Shown: positions 1-13,560 of the stretch, piece by piece
Layout of the letters: each line of letters starts with the position of its first letter
How positions within the stretch are numbered: position 1 is the first letter of the stretch
Source of the DNA: Candidatus Aminicenantes bacterium UBA2190
GTDB taxonomy: Bacteria > Acidobacteriota > Aminicenantia > UBA2199
Assembly: GCA_002335385.1 (NCBI GenBank)
Contig: DCVK01000016.1
Span: 11,224-75,223, forward strand
Reading direction: 5' to 3'
DNA length: 64,000 nucleotides
Position numbers and translations under genes: made by a program
Notes under the pieces: model-generated
The model's database searches: none
Seen by the model: only the letters and a program-made list of their open reading frames with translations
What the model was told of the DNA's origin: nothing

Positions 1-2763
1 TGGCGTACGGCGCCAGTTCTCCGCTGCCCCCTGGCGGTCGCTGATGTCCATGCAGATCCCGAGCATCTGCACGGGCTGGCCTTGTTCATTATAGACGCCG
101 GCGCCCACGGCGTTGATCCAGCGGACCCGCCCGTCCGGCAGCACGACGCGGTAGTTGCTGTCCAGGAATGAATGTGCTTTCAGCGCCCGCTCGATGCGCA
201 GTCCGGCCTCTTCCCGGTCCTCAGGGTGCAGCACCGCCCGCCAAGCCGCAAATGAGGCGGTGCTGGTCTTGGCATCGAGTCCGAGCAGCTCGAACATCTG
301 CGCCGACCAGACGATCCGGCCGCTGGCGACGTCCCAGTCCCACGTACCCGCCTTGCCGGCATGCAGCGCCATTTCCAGGCGTCTGGACGTGGTCTGCAGC
401 TCCTTCTTCTTGCTGATGAGTTCGCTGATGTCGTCGAAGATGGCGAACACCTGGTAGGGGACGGTCTCTCCAGGCAGGAACTGCGGTATGGCGCTGACCT
501 TGAGCCAGCGGATCGCTTCGCACTTGGGATCGTAAATGCCAATGATAACGTCATTCACCTCCTGCCCGGTGCGCTGGGCGACCGGGATCGGGTGCTCCGG
601 GCCGGGGAAATCGGAGCCGTCTTCGCGGACGGCTTTCCAGCGGGGGTCCAGCGATGTCAGTCCCAGCATCTGATCCAGCGTCAGGCCCACGATCCTTTCG
701 GCGGCGGGATTGGCGCTAATGATCTTCCCGTCGGCTCCCTGGTACACCACCCCCAGGGGCATGGATTCGAACAGGGTGCGGAATTTCAATTCGCTCTCCA
801 GCAGAGCCGTTTCGGCCAGATGCTGCTTCATTTCCCGGTCCAGGGCATCCAGCGCGAAGCCGAGGTCGTTGACCACCTCTTCCAGCAGGCCCACCTGGGC
901 GCGATCGAAGTAATCCTTCTCCCCGGCATACATCATCAGGGCGCCGATGCATTCGCCCTGGAAACGCAGGGGCAGGGCGGCCGAGGAGCGGTAGATGCGC
1001 CGGGTGGCGTCCCCGCGCCAGGGGGCCATTCTTTCGTCGCTGCCGATGTCGTTGCAAACGACCAGCCGGTTCTCGCGGATGGCCGTCCCGGTCGGGCCCC
1101 GGCCCGTGGGCACATCATCGATCGAGATGGAAATGTGGTTCAGGTATCCGGCGACCTGGCCGGACTGGCAGGCGGGACGCACGGTCCGGCTCGGCTTGTC
1201 GACCAGCCCGATCCAGGCCATGCGCATGTCCCCGGCGGCGACAGTCGCTTCGCAGACGTCCTGGAACAGCCGGCGGCGGTCCCTGGCCCTGATGATGGCC
1301 TGGTTGACCTGGCTGCGCACGGCGAGCAGCCGGTTGGCGTTCCGGAGCCGGATCTCGGCCGCCTTGCGTTCGCCGATATCACGGATGATGTTCTGGAAAT
1401 ATCTCTTGTCCTCGATCACGATCGCCCGGGCGCTGACCTCGACCGGGAATACCGAGCCGTCCTTCCGCTGCTGCCGGGTCTCGAAGAACATCCCGCCGCC
1501 CTCCTGCATCTGCTGCATCCGCGCCGCCAGCCTGTCCCGTTCAGCGGGAATGACCAGGTCACCCAGCGTCATTTTCAGCAGCGTCTCCCGGTCCAGGTCG
1601 TAGGCGACCTGGGCGCTGTCGCTGGCCTCCAGAATGTTCCCCTGGTCGTCGCAGAGCAGGATGATGTCATTGGCATAGCGGGTCAGGTAGTCGAACTGCT
1701 TTCCCAGGGCCTGCTTCTGCCTTTCCGTTTCGAGCTGCTGCCGGCGGAAGATGGCGTCCCGGCGCTGCCACAGGAAAAGGACGAGCAAGGCGCTGGCCAG
1801 GATCAGGGCCAGGATGGCCGCCAGAACCCCCAGAGCGGTACGGCGGACCGGCTCTTCGACCTCGTTACGGTCGACCTTGACCACGAAGAACCATGGCATT
1901 CCGGGGACGGGCCGGCTCACCGACCAGACGGGGACGCCGCGATAGTCGTGGCCGGCGAAAGCTCCGAAGTTGCCGCGAACGGCCTGGGCGGCGGGAAGTT
2001 GCGGCTGGATGGGCAGGCGCATCTGCATGGCCGCCCCCCGGCGGTGGCGCAATTCGTTCAGGAACAGCACGGAATCGCCCTCGCGCTTCACCAGCAGGGT
2101 CTCGGCCGTGAGGCTGGGCGTGGGCCAGGATTGGATCAGGGGGAAAAGGAAGCCGGCCGGGTCGATGCGCAGGAAGACGAACCCGCTGACGGCATCCGCC
2201 GCCAGCAGCGGCACCACCAGGTCCATGTGGATTGCGGACACGTTGCTGGAACGGTGCAGGTCGGAAATGCTCGCCGTTTTCTGCTGCCGGACCGCTTCGA
2301 TCTGCGCCCGCCCCTCGCTGCCAATCACCGGAAAGGGCCCTTCCAGCGCCAGGGCGATCTCCCCGGCGGCGTCGACCAGCAGGACGTTCTGGTAATGGTA
2401 GCCGCTGCGCAGGGCCTGCATCCAGTCGAGGACTGCCGCGCGGCGCGGCGCGGAGGAACGATCGCTCAGGAACGCCAGCAACTCCGCTCGGCAACTGGGG
2501 TTGGTCTCGATCTGCCGGGCATTCCCCATCCGCTCCCCCAGCCAGTTCTGCAATTCCCTGCCCTTCAGGTCGGCGATCGCCTGCAACTTGACGATCTCCT
2601 CACTGACTACGCCCTTCTTCAGCTGCTGATAATAGAAATTTCCCAGCCAGACGATGGCCGCGGAAACGACCAGGAAGACGGCCGGCAGTGCCCAAGGCGA
2701 ATGCCTGATCCGATCCGGAATCACGTGGCGCGTCCCGATCTCCTGGGTCATGGCCTTCTCCAT
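1..2763 (-). CDS. Multi-domain membrane sensor protein (extracytoplasmic sensor region, then PAS-GAF-PAS-PAS); 3' end lies outside the window
   Basis: Missing from the ORF track because its stop lies left of position 1. Hand translation of the minus strand from ATG 2763 (GGAG 9 nt upstream; alternative ATG at 2751) stays open for 921 codons to position 1 (MEKAMTQEIGTRHVIPDR...). Two hydrophobic spans flank a ~270-aa region. These are followed by PAS-like (DGSVFPVEVSARAIVIEDKRYFQNIIRDIGERK), GAF-like (MRMAWIGLVD...GECIGALMMYAGEKDYF) and two further PAS-like segments. The output domain is not visible. Confidence 0.8.
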   Translation of the reverse strand, partial: MEKAMTQEIGTRHVIPDRIRHSPWALPAVFLVVSAAIVWLGNFYYQQLKKGVVSEEIVKLQAIADLKGRELQNWLGERMGNARQIETNPSCRAELLAFLSDRSSAPRRAAVLDWMQALRSGYHYQNVLLVDAAGEIALALEGPFPVIGSEGRAQIEAVRQQKTASISDLHRSSNVSAIHMDLVVPLLAADAVSGFVFLRIDPAGFLFPLIQSWPTPSLTAETLLVKREGDSVLFLNELRHRRGAAMQMRLPIQPQLPAAQAVRGNFGAFAGHDYRGVPVWSVSRPVPGMPWFFVVKVDRNEVEEPVRRTALGVLAAILALILASALLVLFLWQRRDAIFRRQQLETERQKQALGKQFDYLTRYANDIILLCDDQGNILEASDSAQVAYDLDRETLLKMTLGDLVIPAERDRLAARMQQMQEGGGMFFETRQQRKDGSVFPVEVSARAIVIEDKRYFQNIIRDIGERKAAEIRLRNANRLLAVRSQVNQAIIRARDRRRLFQDVCEATVAAGDMRMAWIGLVDKPSRTVRPACQSGQVAGYLNHISISIDDVPTGRGPTGTAIRENRLVVCNDIGSDERMAPWRGDATRRIYRSSAALPLRFQGECIGALMMYAGEKDYFDRAQVGLLEEVVNDLGFALDALDREMKQHLAETALLESELKFRTLFESMPLGVVYQGADGKIISANPAAERIVGLTLDQMLGLTSLDPRWKAVREDGSDFPGPEHPIPVAQRTGQEVNDVIIGIYDPKCEAIRWLKVSAIPQFLPGETVPYQVFAIFDDISELISKKKELQTTSRRLEMALHAGKAGTWDWDVASGRIVWSAQMFELLGLDAKTSTASFAAWRAVLHPEDREEAGLRIERALKAHSFLDSNYRVVLPDGRVRWINAVGAGVYNEQGQPVQMLGICMDISDRQGAAENWRRTP

Positions 2764-2784
2764 TTTTCAGAGCTCCGTTTCGCT

Positions 2785-2813
2785 AATTTACAAAATCCGC
2801 CCTTCGTTGTCAA
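2785..2813 (-). promoter_or_regulatory. Sigma70-like promoter for the sensor gene
   Basis: Minus strand reads TTGACA, 17 nt spacer, TAAATT, preceded by an A/T-rich stretch. The -10 element ends about 22 nt upstream of ATG 2763. Confidence 0.45.
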
Positions 2814-2982
2814 TAAAAAAATATTTCTGCCTGTTTCCGTCCTGCGCACGCCTCAAGCCGGCCGATCTGTTTTCCCAAGGTCCGCGCAAGGCCAAGTGCC
2901 TGATCACGTTCCCAGGGCAGAGACGGCAGGGGGAGGCGCGTTTCGTTCCGGAGCGCCGGCGGTCACGCCCGGGCCAGCAAGG

Positions 2983-3675
2983 CTAGGCCATGCGCCCGTC
3001 GAGCAGGGTGATGGTGCGCCGGGCCCGGGCGGCCATGCGCGGGTTGTGCGTCACCAGCAGAACCGTCATGCCCTCCTTCTCGTTCAGGGTCTTGAAAATG
3101 TCACCGATCTCCTCGCCGTGGCGGGAGTCCAGGTTTCCCGTCGGTTCGTCGGCCAGCAGGATCTCCGGCTTGTTGACCAGGGCGCGGGCGATGGCCACCC
3201 GCTGCATCTCGCCCCCGGACAGTTCGCCCGGCCGGTGGCGGAGGCGTTTCTCCAGCCCCAGGAAGCGGATGATGGGCATGGGATCGGCGGCGGCGCCCGG
3301 CTTGCGGAAGAAGGCGAAAGGCATGACGATGTTCTCGTACAGGGTCAGGGTGGGAACCAGATAAAAACGCTGGAAGACGTAGCCGAAGACGCGGCGCCGG
3401 ATCCGGGTCAGCGCCGCCTCCGACAATCCCCGGCCGCCGCGCAGGACCTCTTCGCCGCCGACGCGCAGGCTGCCGGAGGTGGCGTTGTCCAGGCAGCCCA
3501 GCAGGTTGATCAGCGTGCTCTTGCCCGAACCCGAGGGCCCGATGAAGGAAATGAATTCACCCCTGGCCACGCGCAGCGAGATGCCGTCGACGGCCACGAT
3601 CTCTTCGCTGCCGCGGCGGTACACCTTGCGCAGGTCCCGGGCTTCGAGGGCCGGTGTGTCTTCGACCATGGTCAA
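2983..3675 (-). CDS. ABC transporter ATP-binding protein (MacB/LolD/FtsE-type)
   Basis: Walker A GPSGSGKST, signature LSGGEMQRVAIARAL, Walker B ILLADEPTGNLD. The TTG start overlaps the stop of the upstream permease (TTGA); an in-frame ATG at 3669 is an alternative start. Confidence 0.93.
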   Translation of the reverse strand: MTMVEDTPALEARDLRKVYRRGSEEIVAVDGISLRVARGEFISFIGPSGSGKSTLINLLGCLDNATSGSLRVGGEEVLRGGRGLSEAALTRIRRRVFGYVFQRFYLVPTLTLYENIVMPFAFFRKPGAAADPMPIIRFLGLEKRLRHRPGELSGGEMQRVAIARALVNKPEILLADEPTGNLDSRHGEEIGDIFKTLNEKEGMTVLLVTHNPRMAARARRTITLLDGRMA

Positions 3676-4868
3676 TCCCCCTCGCTGCGGATCGATTCCA
3701 GCGGCCGCACCCGCGCCGCCCGCCAGGCCGGATACATGCCGCTGACCAGGCCGATGCCGAGCACGACGGCGAACGTCGTCACCATCAGCGGCACGTCGAT
3801 CAGGATCAGCCTGCCGGTCGGGGTATAGGGCAGGAGGCGGCGGATGAGCAGGTCGGTGACCTGCGCCAGGCCGAAAGCCAGGGCCAGCCCCAGCGCGCCT
3901 CCCAGCAGGCAGAGGATGATGGTCTCGGTCCAGATCATGCGGAACACGTCCTTGGGCATCGCCCCCATGCTTTTCATGATGCCGATCTCCTGGAAGCGCT
4001 CGAAGACCGACATCAGGATGGTGTTGATCACCCCCACCATGGCGATGAGGATGGCGATGACCGCGATGGAAAGCACCATCACCTTGGCCGTCGCCACCAG
4101 GCTCATGATGGTGTTCTTCACCTGGGCCATGGAGACCACCTGGACGTCCGGCAGGTCGTACAGCCGGTTTTCCAGGGCGGCGGTGTCCGCCTTGCGGTCC
4201 ACCTTGATGCCCACCGCGGTCAGTTTGCCCTGCTGGCCGAACTCTTTCTGCAGCATGCGGATGGGGACGAAGATCGTGCCGTCGTCCTGGGTGCCCGAGC
4301 GTTCCAGGATGCCCACGACCGTCAGTTCGATGTTCTTGTCGGGGATGAGCATCTTGTCGCCCACCTCCCGCTGCTCGAGCTCGGCCGCCTCGTAGCCCAG
4401 CACGGCCACGCGCGCCGCCGGGTCCGTGAACCAGCCGCCCTGCTTGAACTTCAGGAACGACTTCATGCCCGGGAAAGTGGCCGGGTCGATGCCGAGGTAG
4501 GCGTCGATGGCGCCGCTGTCGCCGCGGTCGGGGTCGAATACGGCCTGCATGAGCATCGGCGTCACGCTGTCGACTTCGCGCTGCAAAAGGATGTCGTCGA
4601 TGACGCTCTCGCTCATGTAGCGCAACCCCGTGCCGCCCTTGAGCATCAGCGTCGCCGCTTCGTAGGGGCAGCCCTTGGCCGTGAGCAGCACCTGAAATCC
4701 CATGTTGTCGATGTCTTTTTTCAGCGCCGCGTCATAGCCGCGGTTGAAGCCGAGCAGGCTGGCCAGGACCCAGGCCGACAGCCCGATGCCGACGACCGTC
4801 AGGACGCTGCGCGTGCGCTTGCGCAGCAGGTTTTTCGCGGCGATCTGGTAAAGCGAAAGCTTTTTCAT
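3672..4868 (-). CDS. MacB/FtsX-type ABC permease with a large periplasmic domain
   Basis: N-terminus MKKLSLYQIAAKNLLRKRTRSVLTVVGIGLS is typical of the MacB_PCD/FtsX family. A ~220-aa extracytoplasmic insert is followed by three C-terminal TM helices (FtsX domain). ATGA overlap with the upstream gene. Confidence 0.9.
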   Translation of the reverse strand: MKKLSLYQIAAKNLLRKRTRSVLTVVGIGLSAWVLASLLGFNRGYDAALKKDIDNMGFQVLLTAKGCPYEAATLMLKGGTGLRYMSESVIDDILLQREVDSVTPMLMQAVFDPDRGDSGAIDAYLGIDPATFPGMKSFLKFKQGGWFTDPAARVAVLGYEAAELEQREVGDKMLIPDKNIELTVVGILERSGTQDDGTIFVPIRMLQKEFGQQGKLTAVGIKVDRKADTAALENRLYDLPDVQVVSMAQVKNTIMSLVATAKVMVLSIAVIAILIAMVGVINTILMSVFERFQEIGIMKSMGAMPKDVFRMIWTETIILCLLGGALGLALAFGLAQVTDLLIRRLLPYTPTGRLILIDVPLMVTTFAVVLGIGLVSGMYPAWRAARVRPLESIRSEGD

Positions 4869-5506
4869 GCGCCCGGCTCCTTGGCCAGGAAGCGGTTGCC
4901 CAGAAGGAACTCGTCGCAGAGGATCAGGTTCTTCTTGACTGCGCGCAGGGTGGCGCGGAAATCGTCCTCGGCCTTGGGTGACGGGTTCCGGATGGCGGCG
5001 ATCGGGCTGCCCGGGCCGGCCCGCCCGGACGCCACGTCGTAACCGTCAAAATCGCGCAGGTTCAACCCGATGAACTGCCGTCCGAATTCCGGCGCGCGCA
5101 GCAGGCGCGCCTGGTTGTTGGTGAGCTTCTGGAAGTAGAAGGCCAGGATGCGTCCCTCGCTGTCGAGCGCCAGGATGGGCTGGATGCCGCCGTAACGGCC
5201 CTTCTGGTTGACGCCGTGGATGTAGCCAATTGTCTCCTGGCCCCTGAAAATGCGGTACAGCGTGTAGGGCACGTCGGCGGTCTCGAAAAGGCCCTTGAAC
5301 GAGTCGCCCAGCCGGCGCTCCACCTGCTGCAGCAGCGCGGCGCCTCCCCGGCCGAGGATGGAGGCGTAGATCGTCCGATAGCCGGTGGACTGAGGAAAAA
5401 GGCGCTTCACGTCGCGGTCGGGGTCATTGAGCTCGCAGCCGACCGCCGCCAGCAGCGGCAGGACGCACAGGAGGAAGACGCCCGCCGCGGCCGCCCATTT
5501 TTTCAT
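4865..5506 (-). CDS. Lipoprotein with an FMN_bind-like domain (flavinylation motif degenerate)
   Basis: Signal peptide with lipobox LLAAVGC. Core GRYGGIQPILALDSEGRILAFYF...FGRQFIGL...YDVASGRAGPGSPIAAI resembles the RnfG/NqrC/NosR FMN_bind pattern, but carries SGRA where SGAT is expected. Confidence 0.55.
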   Translation of the reverse strand: MKKWAAAAGVFLLCVLPLLAAVGCELNDPDRDVKRLFPQSTGYRTIYASILGRGGAALLQQVERRLGDSFKGLFETADVPYTLYRIFRGQETIGYIHGVNQKGRYGGIQPILALDSEGRILAFYFQKLTNNQARLLRAPEFGRQFIGLNLRDFDGYDVASGRAGPGSPIAAIRNPSPKAEDDFRATLRAVKKNLILCDEFLLGNRFLAKEPGA

Positions 5507-5543
5507 CGGTCGTCCCTGCTCATGACGGGTTTCTCCTTGGCCG

Positions 5544-6569
5544 TCAAATGGCGAGCCCCTTGTAAAAATAGATCTGGAAAACGAGCTGTGAATCGCGGAA
5601 GCGCCGGTCGTACAGGTACATCGCCCGCAGCGTCCAATCCGCGTTGGCCAGGAAGGTCAACCCGGCGGAGAAGTTGAGGTTGCGCCGCCCCTTGTCGACG
5701 AGCAGGGCGGGTTGGACCTCCAGCTTGAGCCGGTTCTCGCGCAGCAGGTTCAGGCCGACGCGCCACAGAACGGCCGCCACCGGGCCGAGAATCCTGTCCC
5801 CCAGTGCGATCTCGAGACGGTTCTCCCAGTTGTCGTACAGCCAGGTCATGTCCAGCTCCGCCATGCGGATGGGCACCAGCGTATCGGAAAGCAGGTAATT
5901 GCCCATGACGTCCAGCACCTTGCCGAAGCCGAAGGAAAGGCCGATATTGAAGTTGTCTCTCTCCAGAATGCCCTCGGCCAGGCGGGCGGCGAGCAGCCAG
6001 TTCCGGCGCAACCGCAGCGACATCCCCGACCCGCTGGTCAGCGAGATGCCGAAATCGCCGCTGGCGGTATCGCGCTCGAGGCCGACGCCCCAGTCGCGGT
6101 CGAAACTGAACCCGCTCATCACCAGCGGCTGCAGCAGGTGGGCATGCTGGTCGAATTGCGAGGCCAGGCCGAAATGCGGGCGATTGTGGCCGATCCAAGC
6201 GTCGAACGGCCGGAACTTGAATTTCAGGAAGGCATTGTAGATCTGGAGGACCGGGGCGGTCTTTTTCGCGACGCCATAGGTCAGCCGCGACTGTTCGGAG
6301 AGGATGTCGAGGGCCAGCCGCGCCTGGACGGAGAGGACGGCTACATCCCGCTTGGCGATGGAAAACCGCTGCACATAGTCAAAGCCCAGGCTGGACTTCT
6401 GCATGGTCTCCAGCTCATTCTGAGAATGGAATATGCCCTCCCCCAGCCGGAAGGAGTAGCCGCCGATTCCCTGCGCCTCGAAGAACAGCAGAAAGTCGGC
6501 GGCGGCCAAAGGGGCCAGGCTGCAGGCGACCAGCCACAACGCGAGGAACAGCCTGCGTTTACACATCAA
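5544..6569 (-). CDS. Putative outer-membrane beta-barrel (porin-like) protein
   Basis: Signal peptide MMCKRRLFLALWLVACSLAPLAAA. Alternating hydrophobic/polar beta-strand pattern throughout, with an aromatic-rich C-terminal strand (LVFQIYFYKGLAI). No specific family recognised. Confidence 0.5.
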   Translation of the reverse strand: MMCKRRLFLALWLVACSLAPLAAADFLLFFEAQGIGGYSFRLGEGIFHSQNELETMQKSSLGFDYVQRFSIAKRDVAVLSVQARLALDILSEQSRLTYGVAKKTAPVLQIYNAFLKFKFRPFDAWIGHNRPHFGLASQFDQHAHLLQPLVMSGFSFDRDWGVGLERDTASGDFGISLTSGSGMSLRLRRNWLLAARLAEGILERDNFNIGLSFGFGKVLDVMGNYLLSDTLVPIRMAELDMTWLYDNWENRLEIALGDRILGPVAAVLWRVGLNLLRENRLKLEVQPALLVDKGRRNLNFSAGLTFLANADWTLRAMYLYDRRFRDSQLVFQIYFYKGLAI

Positions 6570-6981
6570 AAAGGATGCGGGCGCGCAGGACGATCCGCTC
6601 GCCGTCGCGGAAGGTGAGCTGGATCTCCCAATCGCCGGGCATGACCACGTTGACGGGCAGCAGGTAGTTCCGCGACTTGTTCAGCTTGAGGGGAACGTCT
6701 CCGGAATCGTGATGCCCCGCCATCGAGGGCATGTCGGAGCGGCCGCTGATCGTCAAAGGCGAGATTTTTTCGCCTTTGTCGTCGAACAGCTGGATCTTCA
6801 GGATGACCATGCCGATCTGCGGCCTCTGGGTGAATTCCCACGTGCCGTGGATCCCGGCGCCGACTTCAAAACGCTTGCCGGGCTCCAGGACGCGCATCTC
6901 CTCGGCTGGTTCCTGAGGCCAGACGCTCGCGGACAGCAGAAAAAGAGTAACGGCCATCAGGCTCGCAGTCAATTTACTCAT
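6559..6981 (-). CDS. Exported YtkA/FixH-like beta-sandwich protein with a Met/His cluster
   Basis: Start chosen at the internal ATG (MSKLTASLMAVTLFLLSASVW) preceded by AGGAGGAAGC. Pattern ILKIQLFDDKGEKISP...DMPSMAGHHDSGD...NYLLPVNVVMPGDWEIQLTF matches the YtkA-like/FixH fold signature as I know it. Confidence 0.6.
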   Translation of the reverse strand: MSKLTASLMAVTLFLLSASVWPQEPAEEMRVLEPGKRFEVGAGIHGTWEFTQRPQIGMVILKIQLFDDKGEKISPLTISGRSDMPSMAGHHDSGDVPLKLNKSRNYLLPVNVVMPGDWEIQLTFRDGERIVLRARILFDV

Positions 6982-7040
6982 GCTTCCTCCTTGAACAGAT
7001 TCGCCACAACCAGAGGCCAGTCTTGCGACCGCCTCCCTGC

Positions 7041-9335
7041 TCATAACCGGTAGATCACCGTCGCGATGAAGCGCCGGCCGGGCTCATAGACCCGCGCCCC
7101 GGTGCGGAACGGGTCACGGGCGTTGGCCAAGTGTTCAGTATACAGCCGGTCGAAGACGTTGTCCAATGCCGCCTGGATGCGAAAGCCGCCGAGGGTCGCA
7201 CCCAGCCTCAGGTTGAGGATCTGCCAGCCCGGCGTGGCCCCTTCCAGCAGGTCGGTATCCACCCGGTTCTGGGCCCCGGTGATGACGCCTTCGCCTTCGG
7301 CAAAGAAGCGGCCCGAATCGTAGCGGACCAGCAGCCGCGAACTCAGGGGCGGGACCTCGCCCAGGGTTGCCGAGTGGATGTGGCGAGCCGGATCCGTGTC
7401 CTTTTCTCCCCGCAGCCAGGACAGGCTGCCGGCGACGAATAACCGTCGGAGCGGGGCATAGCTGAATTCGACCTCGGTCCCCCACAGGCGCGCGTCGGTA
7501 TTGGCATAGGACCGCGCCATGGTGTTCATCACCCCGGGTTGGGCAGTGACGCGGGGCTGGTTGATCAGGGCGATCCAGTCGACGAGCGACTGGTGGAAGA
7601 CGGAAGCGCCGATCGATCCCCTCCGGAGCTGCCAGGTCGCTTTCACGTCGGCTCCCGTGTTCCTCGTCGGCAGCAGCTCGGGATTGCCGACCCAGTCGCT
7701 GCCCGCGCGCTTGAGGGCGAAATAGCGCTCTGCCGGGTCGGGCGGGCGCACGGTCCGCCCGCCGCCGGCGGAAATTTCGATGTGCGTCGACGGCTTCCAG
7801 GCCAGGCGGACGGTGGCGGAGGGCATGGTGTCCGTGCGCGAGGTCGAGCGGGTCGATTGGTAGGCGAAGTAGAGATTCGTATTGGCCAGGCCCGGGTCGG
7901 CGACGGTGCGCATCCGGTCGATGCGCGCGCCTGTGCTGAGTCTCAGGCCGGAGCCGAGCCGCCATTCGCGCGAGATGAAGGCTCCGAGCAGGCTTGTATC
8001 CACGTCGGGAATGGATGCCTGGGCGGCATAATTCATCTTGGCCATCATGGTACGGGTGTCCCAGTTGCGGCGGACGCCCTCGATCCCGAGCCGCAGGCCC
8101 TGCACCGTCGCCTCGGCCTTGAGTCCCAAGACCTGGGTCTCAGCCTCGGTACCCATGCTGTAGCCCCGCGGAGTCCCCTGTCCGGAGATCCTCTGCTCGT
8201 CGGTCATCCAGTGCCTGACCTCGCTGGCATAGGCGCGGATGCGGAAATCCCCGATGAAACCGGGCAGGCCCAGCCGGGTCCAGCTGATGCCCAGGCGATC
8301 GGCGTTGTCCCAGGGGGAGTCCATCAGCAGGCCGGGATAGAAGATCAGGTCAGCTTCCTGGCGGGTATAGGCGATCTCGATGCTTTCACCGACATGCGGA
8401 GTGAGGTAGAATTTGCCCCAGGCGGTGCCGACATTGAAGGCCCGGGAATCGAGCCGGCCGGGGAGGTAATTGGCGGTCTCGGTAAACAGCCTGCCCGCCC
8501 CGTCGCGATAGGGATCGGACCTGCGCATGGAGAACCCGAGCGATCCCGAGACGAGATCGCCGCCGTACGAGAGGCTGAGCGAAGGATTGAGATAGGCGGA
8601 GGATCCTCCGACCAGGGTGGCGGCCAGGTGGAACCCGGATTGGGGCCTGAGGGTCACGATATTGACCCTGCCCCCGAGACTGCCCTGGTTCTCGATGTCG
8701 AAGGGGCCCTTGGTCACTTCGACGTGTTCGATCTCGGAAAAATCGACATGAAAGGCGGGGGAGTCCATGCGGTTGGGGCAGGCGCCGTATATCCGGCAGC
8801 CGTCCACCAGGACGTTGACATTGTCACGCTGCAGGCCGCGCAGCACGATATCGTTGGCAATGGCCCCCTTGCGGACCTTGGCCAGGCCGGGCATGCGCAT
8901 CATGGCCTCGCCCAGATCGATCGCGGGGCTCTCCCTGATCTCGGGAATCGACAGGGAAGCGCCCGTTCCCTGCACCGTAATCGCTTCTGTCAGCCGTTGA
9001 AAATTCACCAGCAGCGTTGCTCTCGCCGTACTGCCGGATCGTACCACGAGCGGAACGCCCTCCGATGTCATGATCCCGTCGAGCGCTGCCGACACCTCGT
9101 AGTCGCCGGGATCCAGCTCGGAAAAGCTGAACTCGCCGCCGTAGCCGGTGATCGTATGCCGCGGCGCCGATCCCATCCTGGATATCGTGACCGTGATACC
9201 GGGAAGGCCTTCATGGGTGGGTCCCAGGGCAATGCCGAAGACCCTGCCCCATGGCTCCGGTGTCGCTGGACCCAGCGCGGACAGCAGGATCAGACTCGAT
9301 AGCACAAAATAGATCAACCGTTTGCCTTGGTTCAT
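7041..9335 (-). CDS. TonB-dependent receptor with an N-terminal carboxypeptidase-regulatory-like domain
   Basis: Start at MNQGKRLIYFVLSSLILLSALG (GGAGG RBS), so the ORF-track extension to 9494 is rejected. CarboxypepD_reg-like segment PGITVTISRMG...GEFSFSELDPGDYEVSA. Plug region DIVLRGLQRDNVNVLVDGCRIYGACPNRMDSP...VEVTKGP. Long barrel follows. Confidence 0.9.
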   Translation of the reverse strand: MNQGKRLIYFVLSSLILLSALGPATPEPWGRVFGIALGPTHEGLPGITVTISRMGSAPRHTITGYGGEFSFSELDPGDYEVSAALDGIMTSEGVPLVVRSGSTARATLLVNFQRLTEAITVQGTGASLSIPEIRESPAIDLGEAMMRMPGLAKVRKGAIANDIVLRGLQRDNVNVLVDGCRIYGACPNRMDSPAFHVDFSEIEHVEVTKGPFDIENQGSLGGRVNIVTLRPQSGFHLAATLVGGSSAYLNPSLSLSYGGDLVSGSLGFSMRRSDPYRDGAGRLFTETANYLPGRLDSRAFNVGTAWGKFYLTPHVGESIEIAYTRQEADLIFYPGLLMDSPWDNADRLGISWTRLGLPGFIGDFRIRAYASEVRHWMTDEQRISGQGTPRGYSMGTEAETQVLGLKAEATVQGLRLGIEGVRRNWDTRTMMAKMNYAAQASIPDVDTSLLGAFISREWRLGSGLRLSTGARIDRMRTVADPGLANTNLYFAYQSTRSTSRTDTMPSATVRLAWKPSTHIEISAGGGRTVRPPDPAERYFALKRAGSDWVGNPELLPTRNTGADVKATWQLRRGSIGASVFHQSLVDWIALINQPRVTAQPGVMNTMARSYANTDARLWGTEVEFSYAPLRRLFVAGSLSWLRGEKDTDPARHIHSATLGEVPPLSSRLLVRYDSGRFFAEGEGVITGAQNRVDTDLLEGATPGWQILNLRLGATLGGFRIQAALDNVFDRLYTEHLANARDPFRTGARVYEPGRRFIATVIYRL

Positions 9336-9493
9336 ACTCGCCTCCTTTCTTCCACAGCGCGCATCCTGTCGGCGAATGGCGCGCCGTTCTCCTTCATCTA
9401 TATCCATCCCGCGATTCCCGGTCCTGCCTGAACTTTTTCCCGGGCGGCACATTGTTTTTGACCGGCAGTCTGATGCCCGCAAGAAACATGCCA

Positions 9494-9516
9494 ATTTGTT
9501 CGCTGGGTGAACAAAT
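9494..9516. promoter_or_regulatory. Perfect 8+8 bp inverted repeat (candidate operator) upstream of the TonB-receptor operon
   Basis: ATTTGTTC-GCTGGGT-GAACAAAT, about 160 nt upstream of ATG 9335 and directly abutting the only AT-rich stretch of this intergenic region (9517-9565). Confidence 0.4.
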
Positions 9517-9601
9517 GAGTAATATTTATTGAAATGACGAATTTTGACCCTATTTCCATATGTGCAGCAGAGTTCCTGTCCTGAAAAACAGGACGAGGAT
9601 C

Positions 9602-9630
9602 AAAAAAAAAGACGGCTTACCCCCGCGCCG
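9602..9630 (-). terminator. Weak candidate intrinsic terminator downstream of mnmG
   Basis: Minus strand has a short GC stem (CGGC...GCCG) followed 2 nt later by T9. The stem is only 4 bp, so support is weak. Confidence 0.25.
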
Positions 9631-9777
9631 GGAGAGACCGGAAAGCTTACCCTGGCTTTTGTTAGCAAAGATCCAAAAATGGCGGTACGTTCAGGGGAAT
9701 CCATGGCTCATGAAGAAAGCGGATGACAAGGCAGCCAGGAAAGCGGCCGGCAAAAAGAATCTCGCCGAGTGAGAGGA

Positions 9778-11592
9778 TCACTGTCTGCATTTCAGGACCA
9801 GGTGGATGCTGACGGCATTGAGCGCCGCCGGCGTCACCCCCGGGATGCGCGCCGCTTCCGCCAGCGTGAGCGGACGTGCCTTGGCCAGTTTTTCCCTGAT
9901 CTCGGTGGAGAGCCCCTCGACCTTGGCGAAATCAAGATCCTCGGGGATGACCGCTTTCTGCAGCTTGCGCATCCTGGCCACCTCCTTGTGCTGGATGGCG
10001 ACATAGCCCTCGTACTTGACGCAGGCCTCGATATAGGAGGCGTCGCTGCAGGTCGCTTTTTTCATCAGCTCCCGGCCGTGCAGCTCCTGCAGGCCGGCCA
10101 GGGTCATTCCCGGCCGCTTCAGGATCCGGAACAGCGTCTCGGTCCTGCCGCCGTAGCGCGCCCGGGTGGCGGCCAGTCTCCGGATCACACGGCGGCGCTT
10201 TTCCAACTGGCGCATCTGGCGGTCATGGTCGGTGCGGGAGACCAGTCCCAGGCGCAGGGCGTGACCGCCCAGGCGTTCGAAGGCATTGTCTTCGCGCAGC
10301 TGCAAACGGTATTCGGCACGGGCGGTGAACAGGCGGTAGGGCTCATCGACGCCGCGCTGGACGATGTCGTCGACCATGACCCCGATGTAGGCCTCCTGCC
10401 GCTCCAGGACGAAGGGTGCCTCGCCCTTGATCTTGAGAACGGCATTGATGCCGGCCATCAGTCCCTGGCCGGCGGCCTCCTCGTAGCCCGATGTTCCGTT
10501 CACCTGGCCGGCGAAGAACAGGTTGGCGACAAGGCGGCTTTCCAGGCTGGCTTGCAGCTGCGTGGGCTGGATGGCATCGTACTCGATGGCGTAGGCCGGG
10601 CGCATCATGCGCGCCCTGTCCAGGCCGGGAATGGCCGCCAGGATCAGTCTCTGCACTTCGATCGGCAGGCTGGAGGAAAGGCCGTTGACGTAGATCTCCT
10701 TGTTGCGCAGCCCCTCGGGTTCCAGGTAGAAGTGGTGCTGCTGGCGTTCGGGGAACTTGACGATCTTGTCCTCGATGGAAGGGCAATAGCGCGGTCCGAT
10801 GCCCTGGATCGTCCCCGAGTAGAGCGGTGACAGGTGCAGGTGATCGCGCACGATGCGGCCGACCTCGGCCGGGGTGCGCCCCAGGAAGCATTGCACGCGG
10901 TTGCGCAGCGGGCGGCGCGTGTGCATGGAGAAGCGGGGCGGCGGCTCGTCGCCGGGCTGGGGAGCGAACCTCGACCAGTCGATGCTGTCGGCGTGCAGCC
11001 GCATCGGCGTGCCGGTCTTCAGGCGCAGCGCCTCGAAACCCAGGCCACGGATCTCCTTTGCCAGCTGACGGGAGGGAGGCTCGTTGGCCCGGCCGGCGGC
11101 GTAGGAGGCGCTGCCGATGAAGATGCGCCCGCCCAGGAAGGTCCCGGAACAGACGATCACCGCGTCGGCGTCCAGGGTCTCGCCTTCCTCCAGGCGCACG
11201 CCGCAGGCGCGGCCGTTGCGGACCGCGATGCCGGCGGCCAGGCCCTGGTAAAGGGAGAGGCGCGGGAGGTTCTCCAGGAAATCCTTCATGAACAGGCGGT
11301 AGGCGGCCTTGTCGTTTTGGGAGCGCGTGGCGCGCACCGCCGGCCCCTTGCTGCGGTTCAGCACCTTGAAATGGATGCCGGTGGCGTCGGCGGCCCGGGC
11401 CATGACCCCGCCCAGCGCGTCGATCTCGCGGACCAGGTGCCCCTTGGCGATGCCGCCGATCGAGGGGTTGCACGACATCTGGGCGACGGTCTCCAGGTGC
11501 ATGGTCAGCAGGATCGCGTCGGCTCCCATCCGGGCCGCGGCGCAGGCGGCTTCAATGCCGGCGTGGCCGCCGCCGACGACGATGACCTTCAT
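9778..11592 (-). CDS. mnmG: tRNA uridine 5-carboxymethylaminomethyl modification enzyme MnmG (GidA)
   Basis: True start at MKVIVVGGGHAGIEAACAAARMG (FAD-binding fingerprint), which overlaps the mnmE stop as ATGA. The Arg/Pro-rich extension to 11922 in the ORF track overlaps mnmE and is rejected. MnmG-like along its full length. Confidence 0.95.
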   Translation of the reverse strand: MKVIVVGGGHAGIEAACAAARMGADAILLTMHLETVAQMSCNPSIGGIAKGHLVREIDALGGVMARAADATGIHFKVLNRSKGPAVRATRSQNDKAAYRLFMKDFLENLPRLSLYQGLAAGIAVRNGRACGVRLEEGETLDADAVIVCSGTFLGGRIFIGSASYAAGRANEPPSRQLAKEIRGLGFEALRLKTGTPMRLHADSIDWSRFAPQPGDEPPPRFSMHTRRPLRNRVQCFLGRTPAEVGRIVRDHLHLSPLYSGTIQGIGPRYCPSIEDKIVKFPERQQHHFYLEPEGLRNKEIYVNGLSSSLPIEVQRLILAAIPGLDRARMMRPAYAIEYDAIQPTQLQASLESRLVANLFFAGQVNGTSGYEEAAGQGLMAGINAVLKIKGEAPFVLERQEAYIGVMVDDIVQRGVDEPYRLFTARAEYRLQLREDNAFERLGGHALRLGLVSRTDHDRQMRQLEKRRRVIRRLAATRARYGGRTETLFRILKRPGMTLAGLQELHGRELMKKATCSDASYIEACVKYEGYVAIQHKEVARMRKLQKAVIPEDLDFAKVEGLSTEIREKLAKARPLTLAEAARIPGVTPAALNAVSIHLVLKCRQ

Positions 11593-12947
11593 TTGCCGAT
11601 GCAGAACCCGGCGAACACGCCGCGCAGGATATCGTCGACGCCGATCGCGCCGGTCAGCTCCCCGACGAGATGCAGCCCCTGGCGGATCTCCTCGGCGACC
11701 AGCTCGCCGGGCGCCGGCTCCTGCGCCTGCAGGCGCAGGATGCGGCCGATCGTTGCCCGCAGCTTTTGCAGCAGGTCTTTCTGTCTCAGGTTGACGGCAA
11801 CGGCGTCGGCGGGCGCTGCGAGTTCTCCCGGCAGGGAGGCTAGAAAAGCGGTCGCCGCCTCGAGGTTGTCGCCGTACTTGGCCGAGATCAGGTTTAAATC
11901 CTCGCCCGGAAAGGCCGCGCAAATGGCGGCGATGACATCTTCCCGGCCGCGATCGCTCTTGTTGGCCAGCAGGATGTGCTTCCTGCCGCCCAGCAGGCGG
12001 TGGATCTCCAGGTCGCTCTCCTGCAGCGGCTGCGAGGCGTCGACCATGAACAGCACGGCGTCGGCGGCGGCGATGCGCTCCAGGCTGCGCTGCATGCCCT
12101 GGTTCTCGACGTCGTCGCCGCCGGCGGCGCGGATGCCGGCCGCGTCGCTGACGCGGAAGGTAAAGCCGTCGAGAACCAGCGTCTCCTCGATGTAGTCGCG
12201 GGTGGTGCCGGGCAGCGCGGAGACGATCGAGCGCTCCCGCAGCAGCAGGGCGTTGAACAGCGAGGATTTGCCCACATTGACCCGGCCGGCGATGACCACC
12301 TGAAAGCCCCGGCTCACGACCTCGCTGAAGCGGCTGCAGGCCAGGATCTTCTCCAGGAGCACGGCGGCGGCGGCCAGTCCGCCCTGATCCCTGCCGGCTT
12401 CAATGTGCTGGTCCTCGGCGAACTCGATGCCGGTCTCGACCTCGATCGCGGCCTGCAGCAGGGCGTCGCGCACTTCGGCGACGGATGCGGAAAGACGCCC
12501 CTCCAGGTTGTCGAACTCCAACCGTGAACCGGCGCGGGAATTCGCCCGGATCAGCTCATTGACCGCCTCGGCCTGCAGCAGGTCCAATTTGCCGTTGCGG
12601 AAGGCGCGGTAGGTGAACTCGCCCGGCAGCGCCGTGCGGGCGCCGTGGCGGCAGGCCAGCGCCAGCGCTTCTTCGACCAGGAACAGGTTGGAGTGCAGCG
12701 AGATCTCGGCCATCGCTTCGCCGCTGTAGGAACGGGGGGCGCGGAAAAAGACCGCCAGGCCCTCGTCGATGCGCCGGCCGGCGTCGTGAATGAATCCGTG
12801 GTAGCTGTGGCGGTCCCGGACCCTGGCAGGCAGCGGCTGGAAGACCTTGCGGACGATGTCCTCGCTCAAGGCTCCCGACAGGCGGATGACGGCGATCCCC
12901 CCCCGCCCCGGCGGCGTGGCCAGGGCGACGATCGTCTCCTCATCCAT
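11589..12947 (-). CDS. mnmE: tRNA modification GTPase MnmE (TrmE)
   Basis: N-terminus TIVALATPPGRGGIAVIRLSG, G1 motif GRVNVGKSSLFNAL, canonical C-terminus FCIGK. Confidence 0.95.
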   Translation of the reverse strand: MDEETIVALATPPGRGGIAVIRLSGALSEDIVRKVFQPLPARVRDRHSYHGFIHDAGRRIDEGLAVFFRAPRSYSGEAMAEISLHSNLFLVEEALALACRHGARTALPGEFTYRAFRNGKLDLLQAEAVNELIRANSRAGSRLEFDNLEGRLSASVAEVRDALLQAAIEVETGIEFAEDQHIEAGRDQGGLAAAAVLLEKILACSRFSEVVSRGFQVVIAGRVNVGKSSLFNALLLRERSIVSALPGTTRDYIEETLVLDGFTFRVSDAAGIRAAGGDDVENQGMQRSLERIAAADAVLFMVDASQPLQESDLEIHRLLGGRKHILLANKSDRGREDVIAAICAAFPGEDLNLISAKYGDNLEAATAFLASLPGELAAPADAVAVNLRQKDLLQKLRATIGRILRLQAQEPAPGELVAEEIRQGLHLVGELTGAIGVDDILRGVFAGFCIGK

Positions 12948-13560
12948 TCGCTTTTTTGCGGATGGTGATGACCTTCAGGAAATTGTCGCCGTCGCTCTTG
13001 GACTCCAGGTCGGAGTACTTGTTGATGGTCATGTGGATGATGCGCCGCTCGAAGGGGTTCAGCTCGGGCAGCTCGACGGCCTGGCCACTGCGCCGCACCT
13101 GGCGGGCGAAGCGGTGGGCCTGGGCGCTCAGTTCGACTTCCTTTTTCTTGCGGTAGTTCTCGCACTCGCAGTAGATCTTCTTGCCGACGGCATCGGCGAA
13201 CAGGCGGTTGATCAGGTACTGCACGGCGTTGAGCAGGCTGCCGTTCTGGTAGAGCATCAGCTTGTAGTCCTCGCCGAAGAAGTTGACGCGCAGGAAATCG
13301 CTCTTGGCCTCCAGCTCGAACTTCAGGTTCAGCTTCATCTCCTCCAGCAGCAGGCGGACGAATGCCTCCAGTCCCTGCTGCTCGCCGCCGTCGGAGCGCC
13401 AGGCCTCGATGAAGATCTCGCGCTGCTTATGGCCGAAATATTTGGTTTTTTCCGTGATGATGCGGTACTTCAGCTGTTCTTCCTGGACGCCGAATTCCTC
13501 CGCGGCCCTCTGGATGGCATCCTTCAGAGAATTCGCGACGAATTCCTTTTTTTCCGTCAT
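12940..13560 (-). CDS. jag: Jag/KhpB RNA-binding protein (Jag_N, KH, R3H)
   Basis: The position after yidC is conserved for this gene. R3H-like C-terminus LNPFERRIIHMTINKYSDLESKSDGD. Confidence 0.85.
   Translation of the reverse strand: MTEKKEFVANSLKDAIQRAAEEFGVQEEQLKYRIITEKTKYFGHKQREIFIEAWRSDGGEQQGLEAFVRLLLEEMKLNLKFELEAKSDFLRVNFFGEDYKLMLYQNGSLLNAVQYLINRLFADAVGKKIYCECENYRKKKEVELSAQAHRFARQVRRSGQAVELPELNPFERRIIHMTINKYSDLESKSDGDNFLKVITIRKKANG

Follow-up and report, generated by a model that had tools for sequence, protein, structure and literature searches.

What work is done by a MacB-type ATP-binding cassette (ABC) transporter that is encoded without a membrane-fusion protein, in one cluster with a TonB-dependent receptor and a porin-like barrel? 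The question is raised by six genes in a 64-kb stretch of DNA from Candidatus Aminicenantes bacterium UBA2190, referred to below as the window (the whole stretch that was analyzed). The window was analyzed using Pfam, NCBIfam, PDB-sequence, Foldseek/AlphaFold2, and Rfam searches, and related loci were sought by scans of one genome per species; gene order and neighbor counts refer to the best 80 genome loci. The region is read here as an OprC/NosA-type receptor together with an adaptor-less type VII (MacB-type) ABC machine that would act on periplasmic copper, with removal of Cu(I) as its likeliest task. A probability of about 0.4 is given to this reading. A copper-handling module is suggested because invariant methionine, histidine, and cysteine residues are found in the cluster, the receptor of the window is of the OprC type, and a sister cassette occurs in a context of CsoR, YHS-domain proteins, and a P-type ATPase. 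An earlier note on this DNA had proposed copper or iron as the metal. The link to copper is supported by the OprC-type receptor and by the sister cassette under CsoR; no specific support was obtained for iron.

The open reading frame (ORF) listing bears out the six tightly packed genes described in that note, which run from 9335 to 2983 on the minus strand. The products and the evidence used to assign them are as follows.

7041-9335, minus strand: TonB-dependent receptor, OprC/NosA copper type, 764 amino acids (aa) (Pfam, NCBIfam, phmmer against OprC)
6559-6981 (long form 6559-7044), minus strand: YtkA/FixH-like exported beta-sandwich, 140 aa (PF13115, family alignment)
5544-6566 (or 6569), minus strand: porin-like barrel, 340 aa from ATG 6566 or 341 aa from TTG 6569 (AlphaFold2, Foldseek)
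4865-5506, minus strand: candidate lipoprotein, predicted NqrC/RnfG fold, 213 aa (lipobox, AlphaFold2, Foldseek)
3672-4868, minus strand: MacB-type (type VII ABC) permease, 398 aa (MacB_PCD, FtsX, PDB relatives)
2983-3675, minus strand: ABC ATPase of the LolD/MacB nucleotide-binding-domain type, 230 aa if TTG 3675 is used (ABC_tran, NCBIfam)

Candidate metal ligands of the encoded proteins

Behind its signal peptide, the receptor has CarboxypepD_reg at the N-terminus, then a Plug domain and a TonB_dep_Rec barrel, with Pfam E values of 2e-8, 2e-14, and 3e-25 for the three domains, respectively. This architecture agrees with the TonB-dependent receptor of the earlier note; the protein is not a generic one, since the phmmer alignment and the ligands given below place it with the OprC/NosA copper receptors. 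The best NCBIfam model is TIGR01778 (TonB-copper) with an E value of 1e-50. The score of 173 bits lies below the equivalog cutoff of 472, and the receptor is thus a distant family member rather than an equivalog. An E value of 1.7e-28 (102 bits) was obtained using phmmer against OprC from the PDB (6FOK), with residues 136-760 aligned to residues 93-719 across the plug and the barrel. The only strong matches among solved structures are six sequence variants of Pseudomonas aeruginosa OprC. The copper site of OprC is defined as CxxxM-HxM and is formed by C143, M147, H323, and M325 (PMC8610252). The segment GACPNRMD of the receptor is identical to that of OprC, and RHWM is aligned with DHIM of OprC. 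The OprC equivalents were assigned by counting positions in the alignment, which gives the following codons for the four ligands in the window.

8778-8780, minus strand: C186
8766-8768, minus strand: M190
8211-8213, minus strand: H375
8205-8207, minus strand: M377

As judged from the aligned sequences, all four copper ligands of OprC are kept in the window receptor, in the plug (CxxxM) and in the barrel (HxM). By these ligands and its homology to OprC, the protein belongs, as a distant member, to the OprC/NosA family of copper receptors, and it would import ionic copper through the outer membrane at the CxxxM-HxM site. The motifs CPNHM and RHWM are also present in the second receptor linked to a cassette of this kind, at a locus designated L022.

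The YtkA-like assignment holds at the level of the family. PF13115 is matched by 29 of the 32 relatives at E <= 1e-3 (best value, 1.8e-9), many relatives carry precomputed PF13115 matches, and one is named "FixH family protein" in one source. Membership is accepted for the family from these profile matches, with the window protein itself below the threshold. The residue cluster singled out in the earlier note is present in this protein.

6697-6735, minus strand: motif DMPSMAGHHDSGD, residues 83-95 of the 140-aa form (from the sequence)

The family-invariant residues are M84, M87, and H91 within this motif, together with M114 and W118. The sole PDB match of the family profile is weak (9LL2, "Copper resistance protein", E 0.007); MPSMxGxHD is aligned there with MPEMPGMPAM, and MPGDW with MNGTW. 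Two proteins connect the YtkA family with copper, CtaK and YcnJ, the latter through its C-terminal YtkA domain, with roles in copper trafficking and the assembly of CuA (PMC13344008). The YtkA-like protein of the window is a candidate periplasmic Cu(I) carrier.

The permease contains a MacB_PCD domain (PF12704, E 2e-20, residues 21-236) and an FtsX domain (PF02687, E 7e-19, residues 267-387), and its topology comprises four transmembrane helices and a periplasmic domain of approximately 215 aa. Its solved relatives are MacB (5GKO, E 5e-22), YtrF (2.5e-20), and LolC (6e-10). The ATPase, whose gene is adjacent and coupled to that of the permease, matches ABC_tran with an E value of 1e-29 in Pfam; in NCBIfam the values are 1e-61 for LolD (TIGR02211) and 2e-61 for the MacB nucleotide-binding domain, both below the equivalog cutoffs, and 2e-53 for FtsE. 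By these domain and family matches, the pair is a MacB-type (type VII) ABC module. Across 68 loci, 165 of the 398 permease positions are at least 95% conserved, including C67, M75, and M107 in the periplasmic domain. Two of these lie in a signature loop.

4632-4676, minus strand: periplasmic loop K65-G-C67-P-Y-E-A-A-T-L-M75-L-K-G-G79 (KGCPYEAATLMLKGG), identical in both cassette branches

An AlphaFold2 model of the barrel protein, which has a signal peptide, was obtained with a predicted local distance difference test (pLDDT) score of 85.4 and contains 16 long strands. Foldseek matches in the PDB are OmpU, OmpT, chitoporin, PorB, and OmpF, with E values from 2e-11 to 5e-8 and template modeling (TM) scores of approximately 0.6. 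The porin-like pattern that had been noticed in the 341-aa protein is thus supported by the predicted structure. The resemblance is one of fold only, because no Pfam family is matched, porin families included. The consensus C-terminus of the family reads ...YFYKGIRF, with the aromatic F as the last residue; with its modeled 16-strand barrel and this terminus of the outer-membrane-protein type, the protein is of the general-porin kind. The most conserved internal segment is GHNRP...H...M, in which H128, H142, and M151 are invariant, and M56 and M183 are invariant as well. Invariant methionine, histidine, or cysteine residues are present in three periplasm-exposed components, namely the YtkA-like protein, the barrel, and the periplasmic domain of the permease; this is a signature of thiophilic metals.

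The fourth gene of the cluster encodes a lipoprotein candidate with an AAVGC lipobox, Cys24, and an acidic residue at position +2. The N-terminus of the family is near-invariant, C-x-L-N-D-P-D-R-D-V-K-R-L-F-P. The AlphaFold2 model has a pLDDT score of 85.6, and each of the top 18 Foldseek matches in the PDB is to NqrC or RnfG (E 4e-6 to 3e-4, probability 1.0, TM 0.40-0.53), from which an NqrC/RnfG (FMN_bind) fold is predicted. At the sequence level the signals are weak: the family profile matches only NqrC among PDB sequences (E 0.79), and an E value of 0.068 is obtained for the RnfG model TIGR01947. Clustering at 90% leaves 2609 relatives in the family, and clustering at 50% leaves 320.

Among the distant relatives of the lipoprotein are fusions of the NqrC-fold domain to DUF3179 (PF11376), which carry two extra invariant cysteines and come mainly from marine metagenomes (P0280-P0343, L085-L094). 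DUF4920-like genes adjoin these fusions. Selenocysteine (UxxC/T) forms of DUF3179 exist (PMC9312934). Two cassettes from Ca. Electronema/Desulfobulbaceae (L056, 10753-12135; L068, 8115-9500) contain a 460-aa gene inserted between the lipoprotein and ftsX genes; its product has a signal peptide, one CxxCH heme-binding motif, a long beta-rich region, and the terminus ...YAFAWLSF, matches no Pfam family, and may be a heme-bearing barrel of cable bacteria. In a Chitinivibrionia metagenome-assembled genome (MAG), a single 608-aa ORF (L082, 8080-9906) joins the lipoprotein (residues 14-212) in frame with the FtsX permease (218-607), and the ytkA-like gene has been relocated to the end of the cassette. 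This fusion was not used as evidence for an interaction, as it is topologically inconsistent and possibly an assembly error.

The earlier note had suggested a TonB-dependent, possibly reductive, module for acquisition or detoxification of copper or iron. In its reductive form, the lipoprotein would carry a redox flavin, as do RnfG, NqrC, PplA, and the FMN-binding protein of Gram-positive P19 clusters. The predicted fold, the relatives fused to a family with selenocysteine UxxC forms, and the CxxCH-barrel gene inserted in the two Ca. Electronema cassettes are in keeping with this proposal, and in P19 clusters a thioredoxin or an FMN-binding protein accompanies the FtsX-type permeases (PMC6083913, PMC8238504). 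The flavin itself finds no counterpart in the family. PF04205 is matched neither by the window lipoprotein nor by 21 diverse relatives at E <= 1. The [S/T]GA[S/T] motif, at which flavin mononucleotide (FMN) is covalently attached by ApbE, is absent from the window protein and from all 270 relatives inspected (120 close and 150 representative), and FMN-binding domains that are not flavinylated bind flavin weakly (PMC8238504). The two negative tests leave the reductive flavin step unsupported, and the FMN_bind-like assignment stands as a predicted fold, without the profile match or the attachment motif. There is no electron-input component in the cassette, and neither Ftr1 (PF03239) nor P19 (PF10634) is matched by the six window products or found among the recurrent neighbors in the 80 loci. 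No redox path is known in MacB-type permeases. Reductive acquisition by this cluster is considered very unlikely.

The five-gene cassette and its CsoR-linked sister

A relative of the lipoprotein is encoded in 375 species-representative genomes. Almost without exception, in approximately 80 of the 80 loci, the genes stand in the order YtkA-like, barrel, lipoprotein, FtsX, ABC, while an OprC-type receptor is adjacent in two. The conserved unit is therefore a cassette of five genes, to which the receptor is a lineage-specific addition; the six genes of the window are not conserved as a set. The hosts include Aminicenantes, Ca. Electronema, other Desulfobacterota, and MAGs labeled Spirochaetota, Cloacimonadota, Elusimicrobia, and others. 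A near-identical locus is present in MAG UBA6072.

No recurrent neighbor was found among 632 clustered flanking ORFs from the 80 loci, save generic sigma-54 response regulators, which occur near the cassette in 20 loci at variable positions. The absence of a membrane-fusion partner, emphasized in the earlier note, is upheld: no membrane-fusion protein, TolC, solute-binding protein, or importer permease is encoded in the window cluster or among the recurrent neighbors of the 80 loci, and the sister loci described below were searched only for cassette, CsoR-like, YHS-like, and DUF4920-like genes, not for a fusion protein or TolC. A TolC encoded elsewhere may serve the window cassette. Genes for copper enzymes or for metallophore biosynthesis are likewise absent from the recurrent neighbors in the 80 loci.

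A search for a shared upstream motif in the window-type loci returned only promoter-like AT-rich words and lineage-specific palindromes. The AT-rich palindromes lie approximately 60-90 nucleotides (nt) 5' of the ytkA-like gene in eight loci (L004, L008, L010, L014, L015, L016, L030, and L069), with TATACTATT-N11-AATAGTATA, TTTACA-N13-TGTAAA, and AAATCCTAT-N7-ATAGGATTT as examples. They overlap the -10 element of a TTGACA/TATACT promoter and resemble repressor operators. Directly upstream of the cassette, an exported His-rich protein without a Pfam match is encoded in L066 (7770-8315), and a Cys-rich repeat protein in the Spirochaetota-labeled L046 (7914-8357) and L047 (7889-8332).

A second branch of the cassette was recovered by a metagenome scan seeded with the DUF3179-fusion relatives of the lipoprotein. 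The gene order in this sister cassette is barrel, NqrC-fold protein, small exported DUF4920-like protein, FtsX, and ABC, sometimes with a second ATPase. The sister permease is 51% identical to that of the window and has the same Cys/Met loop. The YtkA-like and DUF4920-like proteins were compared using hhalign, which returned a probability of 3%; homology was rejected in favor of a non-homologous replacement, and the small periplasmic component is thus interchangeable. No solved relative was found with the DUF4920-like profile. Two consecutive ATPase genes follow a single permease gene in L097, L098, L115, L122, L126, L131, and L158, and three of these loci (L115, L126, and L131) have a rearranged order in which the ABC genes precede those of the barrel and the lipoprotein.

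Enough upstream sequence is available for 38 sister loci, and in 17 of these the gene immediately 5' of the cassette, in the same orientation, encodes a CsoR-family repressor (PF02583). The repressors match PF02583 with E values of 1e-25 and 2e-26 and have a C-H-C ligand pattern (consensus YC...H...C). In 15 of these 17 loci, either ACCCC-N-GGGGT or TAG6TA is located between the -35 (TTGACA) and -10 (TATAAT) hexamers. Of the first type, the examples TTGACATACCCCTAGGGGGTATGTTATTCT and ATATACCCCTAGGGGGTATATA match the published CsoR consensus, ATATACCCCTNAGGGGTATAT (PMC3902906); such type-2 operators account for about half of the CsoR-linked loci. From repressor family, ligand pattern, and operator together, the sister cassette, and only the sister, is assigned to a CsoR regulon. 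Exported YHS-domain proteins flank the sister cassette in approximately 15 loci, and the ABC gene of L148 is followed by one for a YHS-bearing P-type ATPase. Copper efflux systems are under the control of CsoR repressors (PMC3902906), and their presence points to a copper-induced, protective role.

The same loci bear on another possible cargo, either a different soft or borderline metal (Ag, Ni/Co, Cd, or Zn) or a complex of a metal with a chelator, as in the proposed pyochelin-cobalt exporter PA4063-PA4066. Sites made of methionine, histidine, and cysteine are not exclusive to copper, and a single G6-tract operator, resembling the sites of Ni/Co-sensing RcnR-type relatives, is found in approximately half of the sister loci linked to CsoR. 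MacB-type pumps, moreover, usually move bulky periplasmic cargo (PMC11481552). Such a cargo nonetheless appears unlikely from these comparisons: the ligand set of OprC is present in both receptors linked to the cassette, the sister repressors are of the C-H-C and not the H-C-H-H type, the other half of the operators fit the type-2 consensus of CsoR, YHS domains and the YtkA family are both associated with copper, and no metallophore biosynthesis genes are found nearby.

Direction of transport and flanking sequences

The ABC pair could in principle serve a task unrelated to metals. In sorting of the Lol or Aat kind, it would extract the lipoprotein of the cassette from the inner membrane, and the small periplasmic protein would pass this on to the barrel for display in the outer membrane or at the surface; a module for peptide or antimicrobial export and immunity is a variant of this idea. 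The closest families are LolD/MacB for the ATPase and LolC/MacB for the permease, which has the size of LolC. One lipoprotein and one barrel are always encoded in the cassette, and the near-invariant segment after the lipobox cysteine could be a sorting signal. The permease was rejected as a LolCE protein, as it scores 59.8 bits with TIGR02212 against a cutoff of 362 and 35-39 bits with the LolC/LolE exception models against cutoffs of 439-540. Sorting would also leave the invariant Met/His/Cys residues, the OprC-type receptor, and the linkage to CsoR, YHS proteins, and the P-type ATPase unexplained, and is regarded as quite unlikely.

MacB-type transporters perform mechanical work in the periplasm and do not transport a substrate across the inner membrane (PMC5985334, PMC11481552). 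In the favored copper reading, cytoplasmic ATP would be used by the ATPase and the permease to move the periplasmic domain of the latter (mechanotransmission), with nothing crossing the inner membrane. The YtkA-like protein, with its three methionines, histidine, and tryptophan, would be the Cu(I) carrier. The NqrC-fold lipoprotein, lacking the flavin-attachment motif, would act as a membrane-anchored partner of the periplasmic domain of the permease, and the 16-strand barrel, lined with invariant histidine and methionine, would provide the passage through the outer membrane. Cu(I) would move on balance from the periplasm to the outside, a task like that of Cus performed by unrelated parts. 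In the genome of the window, the cassette would buffer the copper brought in by the receptor.

The opposite task is acquisition and delivery. Copper would be admitted by the receptor or, in other genomes, by the His/Met-lined barrel, picked up by the YtkA-like protein, and loaded into copper enzymes of the periplasm or membrane by the ABC pair and the lipoprotein at the expense of ATP. Analogous deliveries are those of NosDFY-NosL, which loads N2O reductase, and of CtaK/Sco, which loads CuA. The window operon begins with an OprC/NosA-type importer; NosA has been proposed to supply copper to NosZ (PMC8610252), YtkA-family proteins deliver copper to oxidases (PMC13344008), and the fusion-less MacB-type modules P19/Ftr1 and ZrgABCDE are found in uptake contexts (PMC6083913, PMC11481552). 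Against delivery, the sister cassette with its CsoR repressor and operator, YHS proteins, or P-type ATPase follows the logic of copper excess, and genes for copper enzymes are found neither beside the cassette in the 80 loci nor among the window ORFs scanned, where no nos genes were seen either. Strict anaerobes, which make up most of the cassette hosts, have few copper enzymes. Delivery is a possible but doubtful explanation by analogy with these systems, and of the two directions efflux is the more likely.

Several points weigh against copper removal by this machine. We infer the substrate (copper) of the window-type cassette, the part played by each protein, and the way in which transport runs; the role given to the NqrC-fold lipoprotein is a guess. 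The regulatory clues oppose each other: OprC-type receptors are copper importers that are copper-repressed in other bacteria (PMC7169445), whereas control by CsoR implies induction by copper excess. An inner-membrane pump is beyond the reach of a porin-like barrel, and without a fusion protein the route of efflux is not evident. The two loci with an adjacent receptor are the near-twin in MAG UBA6072 (L005) and L022, where the receptor gene is divergent. Neither a CsoR gene nor a CsoR-like operator occurs in any of 70 window-type loci, and the window has no such operator. About half of the CsoR-linked sister loci carry the single G6-tract operator, TAGGGGGGTA. The YtkA-like protein of the window scores 20.3-20.8 bits with PF13115 (E 6e-4 to 9e-4), below the cutoff of 25.9 bits. 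No copper enzyme or other copper gene is present among the 10 other large window ORFs that were scanned (peptidases, FTHFS, an NtrY-like kinase, PBP, and similar). Many organism labels in the list of loci are unreliable MAG titles. With these points counted, the wider proposal that the five-gene cassette and its CsoR-controlled sister form a previously unrecognized class of copper-resistance or copper-trafficking machine, moving Cu(I) out of the periplasm, is put forward tentatively, at odds well short of even.

The junctions within the cluster are as described before, with refinements from the junction sequence. A ribosome-binding site, GAAAGGAGG, precedes the receptor ATG at 9335. For the YtkA-like gene, ATG 6981 is the likeliest start codon, located behind AAGGAGGA and 59 nt past the receptor stop, as suggested by the sequence at this junction; the homologues are 140 aa long. 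At the other end of this gene (TAA stop codon, 6559-6561), the overlap with the barrel gene is 11 nt with TTG 6569 or 8 nt with ATG 6566, and the latter start fits because a 100%-identical database protein has 340 aa. The barrel and lipoprotein genes are spaced by 37 nt, and the lipoprotein stop and the permease start share ATGA at 4865-4868. The TGA stop codon of the permease occupies 3672-3674. The ATPase starts either at TTG 3675, in overlap, or at ATG 3669, 2 nt after the stop; the ATG, with the ribosome-binding site GAGGGGGA, is the more likely start.

Two abutting elements are found approximately 145-180 nt upstream of the receptor start.

9494-9516, minus strand: perfect palindrome ATTTGTTC-N7-GAACAAAT, candidate operator (inverted-repeat script; 8-bp arms, 7-nt spacer)
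9479-9493, minus strand: sigma-54-like -24/-12 element TGGCATgtttcTTGC, weak candidate promoter approximately 145 nt 5' of the receptor ATG (match to TGGCAYN5TTGC)

The TGGCAYN5TTGC pattern has a single match in the window, and at least one match occurs in 21 of 100 shuffles of the window. Control by sigma-54 was rejected as a conserved feature of the cassette, the element being upstream of only 1 of 70 other loci. A promoter-like sequence, TGGACA-17-TATACT (10/12 matches), is located at 7137-7165 on the minus strand, within the 3' end of the receptor gene and approximately 155 nt before the ytkA-like start. It may be an internal promoter for the five-gene cassette; the site is probably due to chance, because it overlies the conserved receptor coding motif LDNVFDRLYTEH. 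The Rfam scan of positions 2500-10000 returned no riboswitch or known RNA, and two sub-threshold matches to small RNAs both fall in coding sequence.

Downstream of the ABC gene by 220 nt, on the same strand, a membrane-anchored PAS/GAF/PAS sensor of more than 921 aa is encoded at 1-2763 (minus strand) and exits the window, beyond which its output domain lies; this gene has its own sigma-70-like promoter site, TTGACA-17-TAAATT, at 2813-2785. Upstream of the cluster, mnmG, mnmE, jag, and yidC stand in a row at 9778-15326 (minus strand). These four are the usual origin-proximal set, which places the cluster near the replication origin region. The listed mnmG ORF has an Arg-rich N-terminal extension of approximately 100 aa, and a false upstream start is probable.

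Comparison with known systems

No named system fits the cluster, as the earlier note had held, and no description of such a cluster was found in the full-text literature searched. The combination is not entirely new, since MacB-type ABC modules without a fusion protein have precedents beside periplasmic metal-binding proteins, namely P19/Ftr1 (PMC6083913, PMC8238504) and PA4063-PA4066/ZrgABCDE (PMC11481552).

The cassette resembles MacAB-TolC in the MacB core and four-helix FtsX domain of its permease, for which MacB is the best solved relative, and in an ATPase like the MacB nucleotide-binding domain. It differs in having the ATPase as a separate polypeptide and no MacA-type fusion protein or TolC in the window cluster or among the recurrent neighbors, and it adds the porin-like barrel, the NqrC-fold lipoprotein, the small periplasmic protein, and the Cys/Met periplasmic loop. 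The receptor shares with OprC/NosA the plug and 22-strand barrel, aligned over the full length, and the CxxxM-HxM site. Overall similarity is low, and the window receptor has the extra N-terminal CarboxypepD_reg domain. Its operon partner is the five-gene ABC cassette, whereas that of OprC is a PepSY_TM/FoxB-like reductase such as PA3789. The copper site of OprC would thereby be extended far beyond the Proteobacteria. With NqrC/RnfG the lipoprotein shares the predicted fold, but it lacks the profile match and the Ser/Thr attachment motif, lies outside an Nqr/Rnf operon, and is anchored through a lipobox instead of a transmembrane segment; it would represent a non-redox context for this fold.

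The sister cassette shares with CsoR-controlled copZA-type operons the CsoR-family repressor and the GC-tract pseudopalindrome between the -35 and -10 elements. The genes controlled are those of the barrel, NqrC-fold protein, DUF4920-like protein, FtsX, and ABC, compared with CopZ and CopA in the known operons, and this control is absent from the window-type cassette. The operator of the sister is a built-in regulatory handle, which makes the question of an adaptor-less MacB testable in a defined system.

CusCFBA is alike in its small Met/His and Trp chaperone (CusF), the periplasmic Met sites of its pump, and an exit through the outer membrane. No component is homologous: Cus has a resistance-nodulation-division antiporter in place of the ABC motor, the CusB adaptor, and a TolC-like instead of a porin-like barrel. 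In NosDFY-NosL, an ABC module and a lipoprotein likewise act on periplasmic copper without inner-membrane transport, but NosFY is of the ABC-2 type, NosD is a beta-helix, and NosL is unrelated to the NqrC fold. Most of what is known about periplasmic copper handling in bacteria with two membranes comes from Cus, Pco/Cop, and CueO of aerobes and facultative anaerobes. The cassette is highly conserved, unnamed, and widespread in anaerobic sediment and subsurface bacteria, cable bacteria included, and it bears on a gap in copper biology, the ways in which Aminicenantes, Desulfobacterota, cable bacteria, and other strict anaerobes deal with copper.

P19/Ftr1 of Campylobacter jejuni (cj1658-1665) resembles the window cluster in lacking a fusion protein and in encoding an ATPase and FtsX-type permease(s) beside a periplasmic metal-binding protein of the beta-sandwich type. 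In Gram-positives, spirochaetes, and Synergistetes, these clusters also encode a protein with an FMN-binding domain (PMC6083913, PMC8238504). The window cluster lacks the Ftr1 permease, the P19 domain, and the cj1660-type membrane protein and adds an outer-membrane barrel; its NqrC-fold protein has no flavinylation motif, and its metal clues point to copper, in contrast to iron for P19/Ftr1. PA4063-PA4066/ZrgABCDE shares the split MacB-type ABC without a fusion protein and includes two accessory proteins of the periplasm, of which one is a metal chaperone of low affinity (PMC11481552). It differs in being Zur-regulated, in acting on Zn/Co, in having no gene for an outer-membrane barrel, and in its accessory proteins, which are unrelated to those of the window because the six products match no further Pfam families. 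Given these two precedents, the architecture of the cassette is a variant and not unprecedented. By sequence comparison, what appears new is that it has its own outer-membrane barrel, none of the accessory proteins of the precedents, and clues that point to copper. If the copper reading is true, the cassette would represent a third family of metal-acting MacB-type ABC modules without a fusion protein, after P19 and Zrg.

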